From assembly GCA_964625805.1 (NCBI GenBank), contig CAZVBV010000002.1, positions 1-34,140 of the forward strand: a stretch of DNA of 34,140 nt. Reading direction: 5' to 3'. Position 1 is the stretch's first letter. Every line of letters starts with the position of its first letter. Positions 15,461 through 22,088 of this stretch are shown piece after piece. The position numbers and the translations under genes were made by a program. The DNA comes from an uncultured Candidatus Peribacteria bacterium. GTDB taxonomy: Bacteria > Patescibacteriota > Gracilibacteria > UBA4473. The notes beneath the pieces are model-generated. The model was given only the letters and a program-made list of their open reading frames with translations. It did not search any database and was not told where the DNA came from.

Positions 15461-15521
15461 AGATACGTATCCTTTGGGATACGTATCTTAATGGCTCCGG
15501 ACCGCTCTGGGGTCCGGAGCC
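15461..15521. repeat. Left compound hairpin terminal repeat (H1+H2)
   Basis: H1 is AGATACGTATCC-TTTG-GGATACGTATCT (15461-15488). H2 is GGCTCCGGACC-GCTCTGG-GGTCCGGAGCC (15493-15521). Both stems are perfect. Confidence 0.9.
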
Positions 15522-15780: not shown

Positions 15781-18700
15781 TTATGGAATGAATTTTACAT
15801 GATTGATTATAGAAGAACTAGTTGCATTTGGGGAATCAAATAGCTCGAAATGAACATGTGGATTATCTCCATAAAGAGATTCTGGATCCATTCGAAACCG
15901 TCTTAAGCCATCTGCACTTCTGTAACCATGTGGTCCATTTTGTACATACCCTTTTCCCAAAAAACTCTCCGTTGCCTCTAGTACTTCATCTGTATTTAAC
16001 CAATGTTGACTTGTGCTCATTTGCCCTGGTTCCAACTTCAACGTTTCTGCAATAACATCATCTATTTTCCTATAATCAATAACCTTCCCACCCGCTCTCA
16101 CTACATCATCCATAATCATCGTCTTCCCTCCGATTGTCACCCCTGCCAACTTTGGTTGTGGAATAAATTTATGTAATGCGACTGCAATATCATCTACCCA
16201 TGCTGTAAGTTTTCCCGCCTTCCCAATCTTTCCTATTGGAATAAAACTTAATATCACCGCAGCAACAATCGCCCCTTTCTCTCTGTCGTCCGCGTTTGCA
16301 ATACTGGCTTGAATACTTTCCCATGCATTATCAATTGTTGTTTTTCCTTCGATAAGAACCTCTGGTACATTTTCCTTCAAATACTCTGTCATCCCTACGG
16401 GATCAGTAAGAAGTGAAAGCATGAGTTGCTTCTTCATTTGATCAAACTTCACAACTACTTTTGCAATTTCAATCCATGTGAGTGGATTGAGGAGACTTAA
16501 AATTCCTTCTACTTCTGATTTCACTCCATCAAGTACCCCTAGTCCAAATTTCAGTGGAGAACCTACTGAAAGTAATTTCTGAAGACTTATTTGTGTTTCT
16601 ATTTCAAATTCAGCCTCCCTTCCAATGTTCAATACTTCTGCTCTCTTCGCCTCCACAATCGCCTCGGCCTCGGCAATGATCTCTGGGGTCTCCGCAATTT
16701 CTTCTACCGTTGCCACAACCGAAATATGAACTGGCTCAGGAATTTCTACTTCTGGAACAGGTGAGACTGCCTCCACCTGCTGGCTCGCCAGAGACACTTT
16801 CACTTGACCAAGAACCGTCGCAGGTTGCGTTGTAATCGCCACTCCGTTGCTGTCGGTACGAATTGTTGTCTGAGCAATTCCTGCGTATTCTGCCCCCACC
16901 ACAGCACCTGTGTCACGATAGACGGCCGTGTAGGTTCCGTTGTCATTTCGTATGTACGTAACTGGATCCTTTGTGCTCAAGCTTCCATCTGAAACCCCCT
17001 TGGTAATGCCATCAAAATATTTTGTCTTTTGAGCGATTCCTTCTGGTGTCTCTGAGAAATACATGTGACGCACCATCGGTGCAACCATTATTGATTCATC
17101 AAATGCGAGTGGATTCTTTGCGGTGCGAACACTTGCCGCTAAATTGTTCTGTTGAATGATGATCTGACTGTCTCGCACATTTGAAAAGTGCGTTATGAGT
17201 TCTGTCGGATCGACTGCGGTAAGATCCTCTCCAAGAAAAGCCTTTATTTCCGTTTCGACGATCGTAGCTGTAAGTTTGTCTTTTTGTCGTTCTTCAACTG
17301 TTTTATTGAGCCATTGCGCAGAAATAAATGAGGAAGCTGTTTGCGTCGCCACTTCTTTTTCCAGTGTTTCAATTTGCTCTGTAATAACTTTTCTATATTC
17401 CTCATCTTCTTGTTGGAGACTTCCAAGTCTCGCTCCAAGAGCTTTCATATTTTCTCGGTGCAAAAGAGGATGTTGCCTATAAAATCCCTGCCATCCATTG
17501 TAAGCATTAATCGCCTCCTGGTGAGCATTTTTAGCAAGCCCACGAAGCGTGGAAATAATTCTTTCATCATACGGAACATAATCTCTCATGATATATTGCG
17601 CATATCGTGCATATTTTTGCCCCCAATAATCCCCACTCTGGCCAATTCTTTGTTTCGATCGACCCCAATCATCTTGTACGACCCAACTATTGTTTTGAAC
17701 TCCTGTACGTTCGAGATATTCCTCAAATGTATAAGCAATCGGCGTTTCTATTTTCTCTTTTGTTTGTTGTATTTCTGCATCGTACGGAGAAGGCTGTTCG
17801 AGCATTTCTTTCAAAGCTGATATCTCACTTTGAATCGTGTCTGCATTGAGAACTGTTGCTTTTTGTACTTCAAAAAACTTGCTCTTCGGTCCTGAATTTT
17901 CAAGTCCCATCAAATATTGAATCACTTGTTTTTTCGCCGGATCCTCTTTTCTTTTTTGTGCATAATTTATTCGATTCTGTTTTTGTTTATCATTAAAATT
18001 CTTTCTTTTTTCTTCTCTTATCTTTTTTGTACACGCTATTTTTTTAAAAATACTTCCGGTTCGATATGCTTTAATTTGTTTACGCGTTTCGTCATATTTT
18101 TTCTGGTAGTACGCAATGGATGCATCCATATTGTGTCGTGCTCGGATACTGAGCCAATAATCCCTTCCGTTCGCGTAAGGCGTCCAGTATTCTCGAATAC
18201 CCGTTATCATCTTTTGATGCTCTGCCGAAAGTTCATACAATTGTTTATCAAAAACACGTTCAATTTCTTCTGAATACACTTCCGCATGTGCAATGACTGC
18301 GTTTTTCGAAGGGTCCATTTTCTTTTCCAATTCCACGAGTTCATTCCCCACGTTTACAATTTTTGATTGAATTGTCGCAATTAATTTATCGCATTCTTTT
18401 TTTTGTGCTCCAATGGTGGCATCAAAAGTAAGTTTTGCTGCAACGAGTGCGGCATTGAGATAATTTATTTCTTCTTCTTTTTCAAATACTGGTTTGTAGA
18501 GTTCGTAGAATTCCTGGGTCACCGTCTCTACGGTCTCGGGAGATGGTGGTGTTAGTGGTTCTTCATAAGGAAAAATTTCGTGAATTGGGGTCACGTAATC
18601 AATCTCTTCAATAAATTCTTGGCGGTATGTAACTTGACGGACCGTTTCATCAATCATTTCTTTTTTCTCTTTAAAAGAGTTTGTGTATTTTTCAAAGACC

Positions 18701-20058
18701 GTCGTAAGTACTTTCTTTTGGGGGGCAAGAATCTGATCAAGTTCCTTTACTTTTCGAGCATAAAAATCACTTCGTGTTTTAGCGACATTTTGATATTGAT
18801 AATTGTAAACTGCGTAACGAACAAGATCGTTATAAAGTGCATCTGCAGCTCTCTTAATATTTTCTATTTCTACTTGGCGCTCTGCCTCGAATTTCACATT
18901 CCAATCTTCTCTCACCATGGCTAAAATTTCCTGTGTTTTTTCTGGATGATTCAACAATCTATCTTCAGCTGTCGGTAGTTGTTCATCAAAAAAACTGGTT
19001 AATCCTTTTTCTGTTAGAAGTTCTCCTGAAAACTGTTTCCATCCATTTTTAAGTCGAACCGTTTCTTCTGTCATAACCATCTCTATGACTTCTTTTTCCA
19101 AAAATTCCGGGAGATCTTCTGGGAAAAATTTCCCTTGTGACAATTCTTGAATTTCTTCTTTCGAAAGCTCTGCTAAAACGCTTTGAAATGTCGATTCGAA
19201 TTCCGCTTTTTGTTTCGCTTGGCGAATAGAAATATAACTTTGAACCTGTGAAAGAAGTTCCCGTGCTTTGTTTTTGAACGTATTTTCATTTTCCAATTTG
19301 CTACTCGCTTTCTGCCAAAATTTCCATGTCTTGGGATACCAATCTGGAAATTCATATACTCTTGAATCACTTCTTACGGCACCATAAAAGGAACTATAGT
19401 TCTCATTATTTGTTTCGAATTTCTCTTTATAAAAAATATCAAGCTCCACTTCCCATTCAAGCGGTTCCCCCTCTTCTCTTTTTTTCCACCACGCTTGATA
19501 CATCACAAGAAGAACTCCCGCTGCAATTGGCAAACCTCGTTCATAGGCAAATGTTGACCAACTTACATCTGTCCCCATCGCTCGCCCATCTGCCAACATA
19601 TTTTCTTCTGTGGAAGAAAAATGTTTTTCAAAAAAGGATTCCATTTGCTCCGCGTCACCGGTTAGAAGTTCTGACTGGTTTTGAATTTTTTCTCGATACC
19701 AAAAATCATACACCTTCTGAAATGTGGTGCCGCTCAATGCTAATTTTTTACTAAACTGATTCCAGTCTTCTGGCTTTTTTAAAATAAGCCCGGCCGATGT
19801 TTCTCCATACAATCCCAAAAGTTCAAAATTATTTCTCAATAATGATTGAACGTCACTCCTTTCGAGGATGGTTTGTATTGTCGCCTCATCGAGTTCTTCA
19901 AATTGTGTAGGCGTAATAGTTCCAATCTGAATAATGTCATTTAATCGCTCCTGAGGAAGAACGGGATCAAATGCATAAACAGAATATTCCGCCATCACGA
20001 GTAAATACGTGACAACGAGGATTGTGAGGAATTTTTTATTTTTCCGAGAAAGTCTCAT
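15781..20058 (-). CDS. Giant secreted coiled-coil-rich protein with a toxin-like C-terminal tail
   Basis: About 1425 aa from ATG 20058 (the ORF track starts at TTG 20070). Signal peptide MRLSRKNKKFLTILVVTYLLVMAEYSVYA/FD. Long K/E/Q-rich helical body. A P/E/V-rich linker (SPVPEVEIPEPV). The C-terminal roughly 110 aa end in GYRSADGLRRFRMDPESLYGDNPHVHFELFD. Confidence 0.85.
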   Translation of the reverse strand: MRLSRKNKKFLTILVVTYLLVMAEYSVYAFDPVLPQERLNDIIQIGTITPTQFEELDEATIQTILERSDVQSLLRNNFELLGLYGETSAGLILKKPEDWNQFSKKLALSGTTFQKVYDFWYREKIQNQSELLTGDAEQMESFFEKHFSSTEENMLADGRAMGTDVSWSTFAYERGLPIAAGVLLVMYQAWWKKREEGEPLEWEVELDIFYKEKFETNNENYSSFYGAVRSDSRVYEFPDWYPKTWKFWQKASSKLENENTFKNKARELLSQVQSYISIRQAKQKAEFESTFQSVLAELSKEEIQELSQGKFFPEDLPEFLEKEVIEMVMTEETVRLKNGWKQFSGELLTEKGLTSFFDEQLPTAEDRLLNHPEKTQEILAMVREDWNVKFEAERQVEIENIKRAADALYNDLVRYAVYNYQYQNVAKTRSDFYARKVKELDQILAPQKKVLTTVFEKYTNSFKEKKEMIDETVRQVTYRQEFIEEIDYVTPIHEIFPYEEPLTPPSPETVETVTQEFYELYKPVFEKEEEINYLNAALVAAKLTFDATIGAQKKECDKLIATIQSKIVNVGNELVELEKKMDPSKNAVIAHAEVYSEEIERVFDKQLYELSAEHQKMITGIREYWTPYANGRDYWLSIRARHNMDASIAYYQKKYDETRKQIKAYRTGSIFKKIACTKKIREEKRKNFNDKQKQNRINYAQKRKEDPAKKQVIQYLMGLENSGPKSKFFEVQKATVLNADTIQSEISALKEMLEQPSPYDAEIQQTKEKIETPIAYTFEEYLERTGVQNNSWVVQDDWGRSKQRIGQSGDYWGQKYARYAQYIMRDYVPYDERIISTLRGLAKNAHQEAINAYNGWQGFYRQHPLLHRENMKALGARLGSLQQEDEEYRKVITEQIETLEKEVATQTASSFISAQWLNKTVEERQKDKLTATIVETEIKAFLGEDLTAVDPTELITHFSNVRDSQIIIQQNNLAASVRTAKNPLAFDESIMVAPMVRHMYFSETPEGIAQKTKYFDGITKGVSDGSLSTKDPVTYIRNDNGTYTAVYRDTGAVVGAEYAGIAQTTIRTDSNGVAITTQPATVLGQVKVSLASQQVEAVSPVPEVEIPEPVHISVVATVEEIAETPEIIAEAEAIVEAKRAEVLNIGREAEFEIETQISLQKLLSVGSPLKFGLGVLDGVKSEVEGILSLLNPLTWIEIAKVVVKFDQMKKQLMLSLLTDPVGMTEYLKENVPEVLIEGKTTIDNAWESIQASIANADDREKGAIVAAVILSFIPIGKIGKAGKLTAWVDDIAVALHKFIPQPKLAGVTIGGKTMIMDDVVRAGGKVIDYRKIDDVIAETLKLEPGQMSTSQHWLNTDEVLEATESFLGKGYVQNGPHGYRSADGLRRFRMDPESLYGDNPHVHFELFDSPNATSSSIINHVKFIP

Positions 20059-20147
20059 CTGTGGGGTCAAAAAACAATTCTCATACTTATGATTCCTTGT
20101 TCAATGGGCAAGCAGCCCAACTCGTTCCTATTTTTAACGTTTTTGAG

Positions 20148-20156
20148 ACTATACCA
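20148..20156 (-). promoter_or_regulatory. Extended -10 (TGgTATAGT on the minus strand) for the giant gene
   Basis: Plus-strand ACTATACCA at 20148-20156. Lies inside the cassette, between the right repeat and the gene start, and would give a leader of about 90 nt. Confidence 0.4.
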
Positions 20157-20195
20157 ATCACCTTCCACTAAAATGTGAAGGAAAAGTGAAAACTT

Positions 20196-20265
20196 GGCTC
20201 CGGACCCCATAGCGGTCCGGAGCCTGGACTTTTAAAAAGATACGTATCCCTGAGGATACGTATCT
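20196..20265. repeat. Right compound hairpin terminal repeat (H2+H1), inverted relative to the left end
   Basis: GGCTCCGGACC-CCATAGC-GGTCCGGAGCC (20196-20224), a 13-nt spacer, then AGATACGTATCC-CTGA-GGATACGTATCT (20238-20265). Stems are identical to the left copies. The H2 loop is the reverse complement of the left H2 loop apart from 1 nt. Confidence 0.9.
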
Positions 20266-20279
20266 AACTCTGTTCTATT

Positions 20280-20593
20280 TGGTGGGTTGGGTGGGGATAC
20301 TTGTCCCGCTCTGCGGGACTGCGTGACGTCGTCGCTTCACTCCTTGTATCGAACCCAATCGCTTCGCGATTATCTGGGTTCTCGCTCCAATACAAAAGAC
20401 AAAAAACTGTAGAGGCAAGCTCTACACTTTTTTGTCTGGTGGGTTGGGTGGGGATACTTGTCCCGCTCTGCGGGACTGCGTGACGTCGTCGCTTCACTCC
20501 TTGTATCGAACCCAATCGCTTCGCGATTATCTGGGTTCTCGCTCCAATACAAAAGACAAAAAACTGTAGAGGCAAGCTCTACACTTTTTTGTC
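20280..20593 (-). repeat. Two tandem 157-bp units (identical by eye), each beginning on the plus strand with the 17-nt tRNA-Lys 3' end
   Basis: Units span 20280-20436 and 20437-20593. Each starts TGGTGGGTTGGGTGGGG, the same 17 nt that start the tRNA-Lys gene at 20594. Each unit also holds several hairpins, including GTCCCGC-TCT-GCGGGAC, and a terminator-like stem. Confidence 0.9.
20556..20590 (-). terminator. Bidirectional rho-independent terminator just downstream of tRNA-Lys (repeated in the second unit at about 20399-20433)
   Basis: A-run, TGTAGAG (20565-20571), GCAAG, CTCTACA (20577-20583), T-run. On the minus strand a U-run follows the stem. Confidence 0.6.
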
Positions 20594-20668
20594 TGGTGGG
20601 TTGGGTGGGGCTCGAACCCACGGCCAAAAGCTTAAAAGGCTTCTGCTCTACCACTGAGCTACCAACCC
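20594..20668 (-). tRNA. tRNA-Lys (anticodon UUU), CCA encoded
   Basis: Manual cloverleaf: GGGTTGG TA GCTC AGTGGTA GAGC A GAAGC CTTTTAA GCTTT TGGCC GTGGG TTCGAGC CCCAC CCAACCC A CCA (75 nt). Confidence 0.9.
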
Positions 20669-20692
20669 GGCGCTTATATTCCTTGTTTATAA

Positions 20693-20769
20693 TGGTGGAG
20701 CTACAGGGACTCGAACCCTGAACCCCCTGCTTGCAAAGCAGGTGCTCTAGCCAATTGAGCTATAGCCCC
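20693..20769 (-). tRNA. tRNA-Ala (anticodon UGC), CCA encoded
   Basis: Manual cloverleaf: GGGGCTA TA GCTC AATTGGCTA GAGC A CCTGC TTTGCAA GCAGG GGGTT CAGGG TTCGAGT CCCTG TAGCTCC A CCA (77 nt). The G3:U70 alanine identity pair is present. Confidence 0.92.
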
Positions 20770-20774
20770 GTTTG

Positions 20775-21008
20775 TTACAAACCAGGAATAAATTTTCCGA
20801 CGGTAGCATTGAGGAAATCCCCCAATCCGCCTGCAATCCACATGAATGAAAGTATCGTAATCGCTAATCCAAGCAGTTTAATAAATGTATATGTTCCCCC
20901 TCCGCCGAACCATTTTTCTGCGAATGGAACCTCGCCCGTGAAGTTAACCACACGGTCGGAATAAATTATCATTAAGATGCCAGATGGAATCAAAAGCCAA
21001 GCAATCAT
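20775..21008 (-). CDS. Small two-TM membrane protein (hypothetical)
   Basis: 77 aa from ATG 21008 (the track starts at TTG 21026). Two hydrophobic helices flank a GGGG-containing loop. Its stop lies 5 nt upstream of tRNA-Ala. Confidence 0.5.
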   Translation of the reverse strand: MIAWLLIPSGILMIIYSDRVVNFTGEVPFAEKWFGGGGTYTFIKLLGLAITILSFMWIAGGLGDFLNATVGKFIPGL

Positions 21009-21091
21009 GTGCAACGAAAAGAACAATAAGCGCGAAGATTCTATAAATCAAGAGTTTTTTGTCAAAAGGATTTGAGAAAAACCGCTTTTTC

Positions 21092-21100
21092 TGGTACAAT
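21092..21100 (+). promoter_or_regulatory. Extended -10 TGgTACAAT, 7 nt upstream of ATG 21108
   Basis: A possible -35, TTGAGA, lies 17 nt upstream (21072-21077). Confidence 0.45.
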
Positions 21101-21107
21101 ACAAGGA

Positions 21108-22088
21108 ATGAAAAAGATATTTCTATCGATTCTCTGTGGACTTTTCTTAACAACGGGTATGAGTGTTGTTTCTGCAACTGATAATCTATTGCCACTTGAT
21201 GGAACGAATTACGACAAGGTTATGACCGATGATAATATTCTTGGTAAGATTATCACTATTCAGGACAACGACAGTAAGACTAATGAGTCTTTATCTAAGA
21301 CTGACGATACTTTGAAAGCTATATTTAGAGGAAAGAAAGATGGCGGCAAAGGTCTTATCTTTAGAATAAATATGGTTTTAGGGGCTATTGCTATTCTTTT
21401 CTTGTCTATATTGGGACTCAAATTTGTCGTGTCCCAAGGAGATGAAGACCATATGACAAAATACAAAACACAGTTTGGATACATAATTATGGGCTTGGCT
21501 ATTATTTCTGCAGCTGAGTTTGTGGCTTTTGATTTTCTTGATCCTTCGGGGGGAAACGATATTTTACAAAGCTCGGACTTTACAGATGCATTTTATAAAA
21601 AAATAAATCAAATTAAACTTTTTATTGAAATCCTTGTGGTGGGAGTTGTTCTCGTAAAAATGCTTATGTCTGGATACGACCTTATTGTTCGAAGTGAACA
21701 AGATGAAGCGATTGCTAAAGAAAAAACCTTCTTTCAATCTTTTCTTTTTGGAACGATCCTTATCTTACTCGCAGAAGTTATTGCTCGCATTTTGAGTGGA
21801 AGTAAAACAAAGGGGAATGATGGGGCTGTCGATCTAGAAAGCATTGGTACAGAAGTTTCAGAAGGTGCTAAAGCTGGGATTTCTGAAATCGTTGGTCTTG
21901 TCGATTTCTCACTTTCGTTCCTCGCTGTTATGTCCGTTATTATGCTTATACTAGCAAGTACTTACTATGTAATGAGTTTTGGGAATGAAGAGCAAATGGG
22001 TCGTGCAAAACGAATTGTGGTTTCCTGTGTCATTGGTGCTATTGTGGCGGTATCCTCGTTTACTATTGCTCGTTTTGTTATTGGATGA
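21108..22088 (+). CDS. Secreted/membrane protein with three VirB2/T4SS-pilin-like hairpin modules
   Basis: Signal peptide MKKIFLSILCGLFLTTGMSVVSA/TD. Three repeats of hydrophobic helix, acidic loop ending in K/R, hydrophobic helix: ...KFVVSQGDEDHMTKYKTQF..., ...LIVRSEQDEAIAKEKTFF..., ...YVMSFGNEEQMGRAKRIV... I prefer ATG 21108. Confidence 0.8.
   Translation: MKKIFLSILCGLFLTTGMSVVSATDNLLPLDGTNYDKVMTDDNILGKIITIQDNDSKTNESLSKTDDTLKAIFRGKKDGGKGLIFRINMVLGAIAILFLSILGLKFVVSQGDEDHMTKYKTQFGYIIMGLAIISAAEFVAFDFLDPSGGNDILQSSDFTDAFYKKINQIKLFIEILVVGVVLVKMLMSGYDLIVRSEQDEAIAKEKTFFQSFLFGTILILLAEVIARILSGSKTKGNDGAVDLESIGTEVSEGAKAGISEIVGLVDFSLSFLAVMSVIMLILASTYYVMSFGNEEQMGRAKRIVVSCVIGAIVAVSSFTIARFVIG

Follow-up and report, generated by a model that had tools for sequence, protein, structure and literature searches.

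The window, meaning the whole stretch of DNA analysed here, is a complete 34-kb contig (34,140 nucleotides; GCA_964625805.1, CAZVBV010000002.1) of an uncultured Candidatus Peribacteria bacterium, whose genome (G000) comprises 122 contigs and 956,735 bp at 97% completeness and whose relatives carry the label Candidatus Peribacteria, within the candidate phyla radiation (CPR)/Patescibacteria lineage. Next to its tRNA-Lys(UUU) gene lies a 157-bp tandem repeat, which is probably a short array of a non-autonomous, site-specific mobile DNA mini-element that occupies tRNA 3' ends in a Candidatus Peribacteria family. Positions 20280-20610 form a repeat of period 157 with 2.1 copies, 100% matches and zero indels (Tandem Repeats Finder, TRF), and each 157-bp repeat unit consists of a 140-nt insert and the final 17 nt of tRNA-Lys(UUU). 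This 17-mer, TGGTGGGTTGGGTGGGG, starts at 20280, 20437 and 20594 and is found nowhere else in the 957-kb genome; it contains C60 (the last T-loop base), the T-stem 3' strand, the acceptor 3' strand, A73 and the encoded CCA. Three copies at 157-bp spacing, the third within an intact tRNA-Lys, had already been described in an initial annotation of this DNA and are borne out by TRF, whole-genome matching and ARAGORN, as is the identity of the two intervening 140-bp segments (TRF, 100%). The bidirectional terminator, the long hairpin (GAGAACCCAG..GCGAAGCGATTGGGTTC) and the 7-bp GC hairpin (GTCCCGC-AGA-GCGGGAC) that it assigned to each segment were all located as well.

Read in the tRNA sense, units of the family follow the order P1, asT, short loop, sT5', core X, and a T-loop-to-CCA copy of the tRNA. 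P1 is an A-run/GC-stem/T-run hairpin directly after CCA that scores as a terminator on both strands, and asT is an antisense copy of the cognate T-arm. The segment sT5', with the family form (G)GGTTCG(A), covers the 5' half of the T-stem in sense orientation together with the beginning of the T-loop, and forms helix P2 with asT. At the tRNA-Lys locus these parts are placed as follows.

21065-21038, minus strand: predicted promoter-like site of the tRNA-Ala/tRNA-Lys transcription unit
20693..20769, minus strand: tRNA-Ala(UGC), upstream in the same transcription unit (ARAGORN, Rfam)
20594..20668, minus strand: intact tRNA-Lys(UUU), its 3' 17 nt (20594-20610) being 17-mer copy 1 (ARAGORN; Rfam tRNA, 76 bits)
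20454..20593, minus strand: unit 1, the tRNA-proximal 140-nt insert (TRF, 100% identity; covariance model matches)
20555..20593, minus strand: P1 of unit 1, a bidirectional intrinsic terminator made of an A-run, GTGTAGAG-CTTG-CCTCTACA and a T-run, abutting CCA (prediction and fold)
20408-20426 and 20565-20583, both strands: predicted bidirectional terminator-like hairpins
20531..20547, minus strand: asT of unit 1, TTGGAGCGAGAACCCAG, antisense to the tRNA-Lys T-arm (65' to 49') with a mismatch at 57'-58' (sequence)
20505..20530, minus strand: P2 extension hairpin AATCGC-GAA-GCGATT, then sT5' GGGTTCGAT, the sense T-stem 5' half and T-loop start with which asT pairs (fold)
20454..20504, minus strand: core X of unit 1, with a GGAGTGAAGCGA motif, a short GACGTC hairpin and P4, ending GTAT (alignment, fold)
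20460-20476, minus strand: P4 of unit 1, a GC hairpin (alignment, fold)
20437..20453, minus strand: 17-mer copy 2, T-loop C60 to CCA (exact match)
20297..20436, minus strand: unit 2, identical to unit 1 (TRF, covariance model, terminator prediction)
20398-20436, 20374-20390, 20348-20356 and 20303-20319, minus strand: P1, asT, sT5' and P4 of unit 2, respectively
20280..20296, minus strand: 17-mer copy 3, the displaced original tRNA 3' end (exact match; empty-site joint)
20236..20266, no strand: native hairpin, a GATACGTATCC palindrome pair with a T-run on the tRNA-sense strand

The boundaries of the insert are exact, at T-loop position 59/60 and at the base after CCA, and the insert leaves tRNA-Lys intact. 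The termini of the 140-nt unit, GACAAAAAAGTG... and ...GGGACAAGTAT, are not inverted repeats. Covariance models of the unit score 27 bits (R1) and 42.9 bits (R2, the rebuilt model; E about 1e-5) at 20459-20546. In an Rfam 15 scan of 19000-22000 at E<=1 the two tRNAs alone pass and the units have no match. A small open reading frame (ORF) in the unit (AAGGAG then GTG) was rejected as a gene, as its start overlaps the Shine-Dalgarno-like motif and it is unconserved among units.

Alleles of this locus were sought in independent salt-lake metagenomes (runs X1-X6) by way of their Logan contigs (k=31). A 31-mer that spans the 17-mer and holds one unit end and one unit start requires two adjacent units or a circular unit, and the unit-to-unit junction (20424-20466) is present on contigs of runs X2, X3, X4, X5 and X6. 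In run X2 a 174-nt unit contig has a depth of 41.5 and the junction contig one of 23.8, above the 13-17 of the flanks, indicating about 2.6-2.8 units per genome. Run X1 yields a single 4352-nt contig with the flank, exactly one unit and the tRNA (joint 20279|20437). A 615-nt contig of run X6 joins 20279, where the native flank begins, directly to 20594 and carries the 17-mer once, and is thus an empty site; as its flank differs at 6 of 49 positions, this empty site belongs to a related strain. Based on the junction contigs and these three alleles the array is real and variable in copy number, with natural populations carrying 0, 1, 2 or about 3 units at tRNA-Lys, although the exact unit number in the source organism of the window is not fixable from contigs alone. 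The inserted DNA amounts to exactly n x 157 bp. P1 is part of it because the empty-site allele lacks P1, which at this locus also rules out P1 as the native terminator of the tRNA; the native hairpin at 20236-20266, outside the unit, stands directly 3' of the tRNA in that allele. Elsewhere in the family P1 differs even where the cores of the units are nearly the same. No JGI metagenome contig matched an exact 32-nt stretch of the window's core, and the sole RNA run found held tRNA pieces from other organisms and was uninformative on the unit.

The repeat at tRNA-Lys is one member of a family that accompanies about half of the tRNA genes of this genome. The first homologues, found with BLAST and nhmmer, were the sequences directly behind tRNA-Leu(CAA) and tRNA-His, whose cores are identical at 81 of 90 positions (90%). 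A scan of all tRNAs then placed at least one unit behind 18 of 37 tRNA genes, 11 of them with an exact copy of their own 3' end of at least 17 nt. Exact copies of 17-20 nt lie 140-166 nt downstream of Lys-UUU, Gly-UCC, Gly-GCC, His, Gln-UUG, Asp, Pro and Val-GAC; Leu-UAG and Tyr are also on the exact-copy list, and at Ser-CGA, which has a short version of the unit, the copy lies 49 nt downstream. Decayed 3'-end copies follow seven further tRNAs, among them copies of 11-13 nt behind Met, Ser-GCU, Glu, Ser-GGA and Arg-UCU. The five-unit covariance model has 14 matches in the genome and added tRNA-Leu(UAG), tRNA-Tyr and an array on contig C92 whose tRNA is off-contig. Unit sizes range from 45 to 170 nt; the units are always on the tRNA-sense strand, and the 3'-end copy always stops at CCA. 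Related cores occupy different tRNAs, each with flanking segments matched to that tRNA. Four loci of the genome deserve separate mention.

C32:9264-9620 (L067), minus strand: tRNA-Leu(UAG), another tandem pair without any differences (two units of 176 nt) at a contig end that cuts the tRNA, followed by a REP-like CCGGACC hairpin (REP, repetitive extragenic palindrome)
C92:2700-3320 (L068), minus strand: array of at least four different units, each ending in ATCCTATCGCGTGTACC, running off the contig end
C15:11700-12450 (L059): tRNA-Arg(UCU) array with an N-run inside
C16:838-950 (L004): orphan unit ending in an exact tRNA-Trp 3' end, ATTCCTACCGCGCCTGCCA

The sequence ATCCTATCGCGTGTACC is the 3' end of a tRNA-Arg(UCG)-type gene, and the tRNA-Arg(UCG) gene on C66 has no unit. 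Likewise, the tRNA-Trp gene sits on C26 and has no unit in the following 170 nt.

Outside this genome the family was followed through 37 genomes of the same family (that of the window included) and 24 genomes from other families of the class. The initial annotation had proposed a covariance or structure analysis of the 140-bp unit across related genomes; here, 15 of the 37 family genomes contain the core, with 63 matches to the core model in all (E<=0.001), and the 24 others have zero matches. With the rebuilt model R2 and strict filters, a sample of 301 genomes from the phylum yielded the core in this family alone. Of 30 matches examined in relatives, 24 stand behind a tRNA on the same strand, most of them 43-65 nt from its end, and 14 tRNA species are represented (Lys, Val, Glu, Gln, Tyr, Ser, Met, Asp, Trp, Leu, Arg, Thr, Pro, Gly). 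Most of the examined matches are followed, after 5-19 nt, by a 13-18-nt or partial copy of the 3' end of that tRNA. The orthologous tRNA-Ala/tRNA-Lys(UUU) locus is empty in genomes G015 and G021, while the tRNA-Lys locus of G002, a member of the same genus with the same downstream gene, holds one unit of a different subtype, whose core is 84% identical to the tRNA-Asp unit of the window's genome. Two units about 97% alike follow tRNA-Lys(UUU) in G035, and two diverged units follow tRNA-Lys(CUU) in G020. Empty, single and double orthologous sites, together with related cores at different tRNAs, are the marks of mobile DNA that turns over. The family is apparently undescribed, as no description of such an element was found in the full-text literature, of which coverage was incomplete.

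Two further loci lie in another congener, G001. The first, C1:480-700 (L011), is the orthologue of the window's locus but is without a tRNA call by ARAGORN: of tRNA-Lys just the 3' part remains, the anticodon arm is replaced by CCCCGCTGTATAGCGGAG, and the remnant is followed by a decayed unit and the conserved downstream gene. At C26:1-600 (L073) there are three tandem units of ~182 nt, again without a called tRNA, and the spacers carry on the opposite strand an apparent tRNA 5' half (GGGGCGTCGCCAAGTGGTAAGGCTCTGG...).

The unit contains an incomplete copy of the neighbouring tRNA that folds back on itself, and core X lies inside the T-loop of this copy. The segment asT can pair with the sense pieces that flank X, leaving positions 57-58 unmatched. 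In its commonest form core X consists of P3 (loop GAGYGAARCGA), CCTCGAG and the GC-rich hairpin P4, followed by ..GAGAGTAT; the window unit belongs to a subtype in which P3 has shrunk to the short GACGTC hairpin. In the Lys units of three genera the loop between asT and sT5' holds an extra GTCGCGAAGCGAC-type hairpin. Covariation was measured on an alignment of 50 units (47 distinct) fitted to the model, a procedure that favours structure, and 95.2% of cells are standard pairs there as against 77.6% in column shuffles. Changes on both sides occur in 17 of 20 pairs (152 cells), and when the partner is slid by 1-3 columns pairing drops to 31-59%. P2 is paired in 98.6% of cells across the 47 distinct units, and P3 and P4 covary massively (e.g., CG/UA/GC/AU at single pairs). 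A hammerhead-like CUGA..GAAA reading of the P3 loop was discarded because the helix topology does not fit. The asT segment matches positions 59-65 of its own tRNA at 4.75/7, compared with 3.57/7 for non-cognate tRNAs, a value reached by 0 of 5000 permutations.

The helices are 93% Watson-Crick; G-T and A-C mismatches, compared as a guide to the strand, are both rare (18 and 10 of 846 cells), and they single out neither strand as an RNA. Folded as single-stranded DNA and compared with 200 shuffles, the unit reaches z = -8.1 in the tRNA sense and z = -7.6 for the other strand. The scarcity of wobbles and the equally good folding of both strands fit a structure at the DNA level.

The arrays do not all seem to have grown in the same way. 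The identical pairs at tRNA-Lys and Leu-UAG could stem from re-insertion beside the restored tRNA end, or from unequal exchange or slippage across the 17-nt repeats. At tRNA-Arg(UCU) all three units share the same diverged 3' copy, TCCGAACGGGGATA, and this array thus grew by internal duplication. In the Gly-UCC and Val-GAC arrays an 82-85-nt block (3' copy, P1, asT and sT5') is identical between neighbours while the cores differ, and the C92 and Gly-GCC arrays are likewise heterogeneous. This points to recombination between alleles or exchange of X alone. Distal 3' copies are often degenerate, and the gradient from intact proximal to decayed distal copies within arrays is a weak trend. The tRNA-Lys locus is a copy-number-variable and probably recently active example of the family.

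Candidate enzymes were sought both in this genome and by comparing the phyletic distribution of genes with that of the core. The genome encodes a single tyrosine recombinase, on another contig in the region C8:15227-15703, which is XerC/XerD/XerA-like and kept in all four congeners; the Phage_integrase-domain gene that occurs once each in G000 and G001 is this conserved Xer-type. Among the four congeners, matches to the reverse transcriptase (RT) domain RVT_1 are found in G000 and G003 alone; there is none in G001 (97% complete, 8 core matches) or G002 (96%, 4 core matches), and RT was rejected as the mobiliser as it is absent from these two unit-bearing congeners. The RT of the window's genome (C30:8194-8865, about 386 aa) scores below the thresholds of the models for group II, retron and DRT enzymes. 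Y1/RAYT genes are widespread in the class; Y1_Tnp was detected in 12 of 15 core-bearing and 13 of 22 core-less genomes. The subfamily of REP-associated tyrosine transposases (RAYT) represented on contig C85 is present in 8 of 15 and 9 of 22, respectively, and G015 and G020 have units without a Y1 match. Y1/RAYT proteins were accordingly set aside as mobilisers after two phyletic tests without association. The RAYT-like Y1 gene on C85 (1640-2224) encodes 195 aa with a Y1_Tnp match at E=2e-4 and HUH-like HFH and YY motifs; its start lies some 190 nt beyond tRNA-Ser(CGA) with the minimal unit of that tRNA. A scan of IMG/VR with the P2/P3 core motif returned one chance match in a coding region without a tRNA. 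The integrase-bearing element with the same 17-mer that the initial annotation had suggested looking for is absent from the genome.

The boundary at T-loop 58-60, the identity that ends at CCA, the intact tRNA, the terminator carried by the element and the precise empty site together match the geometry that results when an element integrates into a tRNA gene by crossing over in its T-loop. The 140-nt unit itself is the inserted entity, and the stacked objects are complete members of the family. The description of the repeats as stacked att-like sites thus stands with respect to geometry (tRNA 3'-end repeats, stacking, empty site), but not with respect to scale, as it is the unit itself that was inserted. 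The reading as a mobile mini-element, which we consider probable, would work as follows. A unit would enter by strand exchange in the T-loop, around 58|59-60, and bring a fresh tRNA 3' end and a terminator, so that the gene keeps working, while the old 3' end would be pushed downstream and decay there. Paired with the two sense pieces, asT may fold into a three-way junction, presenting a double-stranded imitation of the targeted T-arm. An enzyme acting in trans would take this mimic as its substrate, and the lone Xer-type protein is a candidate for that enzyme at most. Arrays would grow as further units insert beside the restored tRNA end, or else through slippage or unequal recombination, which would act on the 17-nt repeats and, from two units onwards, on whole units as well. 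Perhaps, and more tentatively, the family is a protein-less retargetable element in which core X serves as a scaffold (about 50-110 nt) and the three tRNA-derived segments serve as a T-loop duplex mimic or guide, with strands exchanged by a Xer-type recombinase or by template-switching during replication, the segments re-templated for each target and the tRNA-Lys array currently active; we regard this fuller model as possible but doubtful. Re-templating from each new target would explain how one family came to occupy half of the tRNA genes.

Several observations weigh against the mobile-element reading. The 140-nt unit encodes no ORF, no enzyme was found for it either in cis or as a clear candidate in trans, and nothing connects the lone Xer-type recombinase to T-arms. 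Neither a free or circular intermediate nor a de novo insertion was seen, and the evidence on copy number and alleles comes from k=31 contigs rather than from raw or long reads. The growth of some arrays, such as tRNA-Arg(UCU), by internal duplication is not re-insertion, and an identical block beside differing cores is not predicted by a simple model in which the whole unit integrates. No classical integrase mechanism explains how a single backbone takes up a 3' end, a sense T-stem and an antisense T-arm from many different tRNAs. Finally, the conserved unpaired loop GAGYGAARCGA is also compatible with a function at the protein or RNA level.

Alternatively, the units could be a host-serving structured RNA linked to tRNA genes and expressed by read-through transcription, with the tandem copies resulting from gene duplication, which corresponds to the tRNA-linked RNA gene array considered in the initial annotation. 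Covariation in three helices, along with the unpaired motifs GAGYGAARCGA and CCTCGAG across 47 distinct copies, would be expected of such an RNA, as would 3'-end copies that end at CCA, the end of the mature RNA, and the constant tRNA-sense orientation at about half of the tRNA genes. In nearly every unit, however, a bidirectional terminator comes first and separates the tRNA from the folded core, and terminator/promoter prediction found no promoter-like site inside the unit. Wobble pairs make up about 2% of cells without strand bias, there is no Rfam match, and many distal 3' copies are degenerate. Presence is also patchy: orthologous sites in close relatives are empty, decayed or occupied by another subtype, an empty allele exists, and the core is confined to 15 of 37 family genomes with none in the rest of the phylum sample. 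An RNA gene array is therefore disfavoured and, in our judgement, unlikely, and the same holds for the roles that a T-arm/acceptor mimic might have as an RNA, whether in the processing or quality control of tRNA 3' ends, in diverting enzymes that target tRNAs, or in serving as an RNA primer or template. Somewhat less likely again is a retro-element origin, in which an RT copies the core RNA and either switches template onto a mature tRNA or is primed by it, reading from CCA to a block in the T-loop near 58, after which the cDNA recombines into the tRNA gene. RTs are known to copy tRNA from CCA to a stop at m1A58, the retroviral primer-binding site (PBS) being 18 nt, and Neurospora retroplasmids make tRNA-cDNA hybrids. 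The copied segment does run from CCA to T-loop 58-60 (17-20 nt) at every tRNA, such copying would automatically match the copy to any tRNA, and the genome encodes one unclassified RT, the one on C30. On the other hand, G001 and G002 carry units without an RT match, the antisense T-arm and the sense T-stem 5' half are left unexplained, P1 was inserted together with the core at tRNA-Lys, and the unit has no poly-A or other hallmark of retro-insertion. Both the host RNA and the retro-element reading account for fewer of the observations than the mobile mini-element does.

The scar hypothesis of the initial annotation, in which a larger element integrated and was excised repeatedly and left the repeats behind, fares worse. 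In its most explicit form, integrase-bearing islands or prophages entered tRNA-Lys, lost their interior to leave attL-attR structures resembling cis-mobilizable elements (CIMEs), and were then duplicated. The tRNA 3'-end direct repeats, the intact tRNA and the precise empty site are indeed the classical signature of such events. Yet independent deletions cannot yield similar small structured units at 18 of the 37 tRNA genes in this genome and, in relatives, at 14 tRNA species; the 17-mer is on no integrase-bearing element and nowhere else in the genome, the sole tyrosine recombinase is the conserved Xer-type, and no viral contig carries the core motif. We therefore hold this origin to be very improbable. 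The least credible explanation is an assembly artefact in which a single unit was expanded by the assembler. The perfect identity of the copies, the single unit assembled from run X1, and the coincidence of other arrays in this metagenome-assembled genome with contig ends or N-runs would be in line with it, but the junction is impossible with one unit and is nonetheless found on contigs of at least five independent runs (X2-X6), unit and junction depths in X2 exceed the flank depth, and copy number varies among samples. Assembly collapse or expansion, as raised at the outset, is thus hardly tenable as the source of the tandem junction.

The hairpin-bounded cassette that the initial annotation had noted immediately beyond the units proved to be separate; its hairpins are dispersed REP-like palindromes (GATACGTATC). 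This palindrome occurs 54 times in the genome compared with ~1 expected, usually in hairpin-forming pairs, and its sites include 20236-20266 and 15462-15490 of the window and C16:968-1000. It forms a dispersed REP-like family distinct from the tRNA units, although it adjoins several tRNA arrays. The ORF directly downstream of the array (15781-20070, minus strand, 1429 aa) has no Pfam match.

Compared with known systems, the mini-element shares most of its geometry with the islands, prophages and integrative and conjugative elements (ICEs) that use T-loop tyrosine integrases, and with the CIMEs derived from them; tRNA genes are the classical landing sites of such large mobile elements. Common to both are tRNA 3'-end repeats from T-loop to CCA, rescue of the tRNA by a 3' end and a terminator borne by the element, a precise empty site and tandem accretion. 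The unit differs in being 140 nt rather than kilobases long (about 100x smaller), in lacking a cis or cognate integrase, and in its antisense T-arm and split sense copy, which would fold into a mimic of the target, while the family differs in having one backbone at 18 or more tRNAs, each with its own matching core. A CIME would have an autonomous partner sharing its att sites or arms, and none was found in the genome or in IMG/VR (plasmid collections were unsearched). In its presumed way of working the unit would be most like the folded recombination sites of CTX phage-type integrative mobile elements exploiting Xer (IMEX) and integron attC. The folded single-stranded attP of CTX phage is recombined by host XerCD. 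Like these, the unit is a small folded DNA, whose inverted segments would imitate the target duplex with mismatches at the centre, and as with IMEX it has no recombinase of its own, tandem arrays are typical, and the sole tyrosine recombinase available is of the Xer-type; use of Xer and a single-stranded intermediate would be carried over from this analogy. The differences are that the target is the tRNA T-loop rather than dif or attI and that there are no phage genes and no cassette ORF.

With REP sequences or bacterial interspersed mosaic elements (BIMEs) and their RAYTs, and with miniature inverted-repeat transposable elements (MITEs), the units have in common that they are short, gene-less, rich in hairpins and present in many intergenic copies, and RAYT-like genes are present in the genome. 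They differ in the lack of terminal inverted repeats, in a duplication of 17-20 nt that is the tRNA 3' end, in the strict association with tRNA 3' ends and their orientation, and in the uncorrelated distribution of RAYT/Y1. Short interspersed nuclear elements (SINEs) and retroviral PBS likewise involve tRNA-derived sequence, with a copied span from CCA to the T-loop equal to the 18-nt PBS span, but the units are bacterial, stand at the cognate tRNA gene alone, comprise the 3' third plus an antisense T-arm, and occur in congeners that lack RT. With the integrase missing, a tiny size and many tRNAs served, the family was not filed as an island, CIME, MITE, REP or IMEX.

For genomes of this family, the units have practical consequences. 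They break assemblies at tRNA loci, where several arrays lie at contig ends or enclose N-runs, and they create pseudo-tRNA 3' ends that could be mistaken for att sites of islands. For the organisms themselves, the units supply terminators for many tRNA transcription units. The integration geometry of large elements is here used by gene-less inserts of ~140 nt at half of the tRNA genes of a reduced genome of ~1 Mb. If the T-arm segments truly form a mimic of the target, the family would represent a minimal, naturally retargeted system of site-specific insertion.

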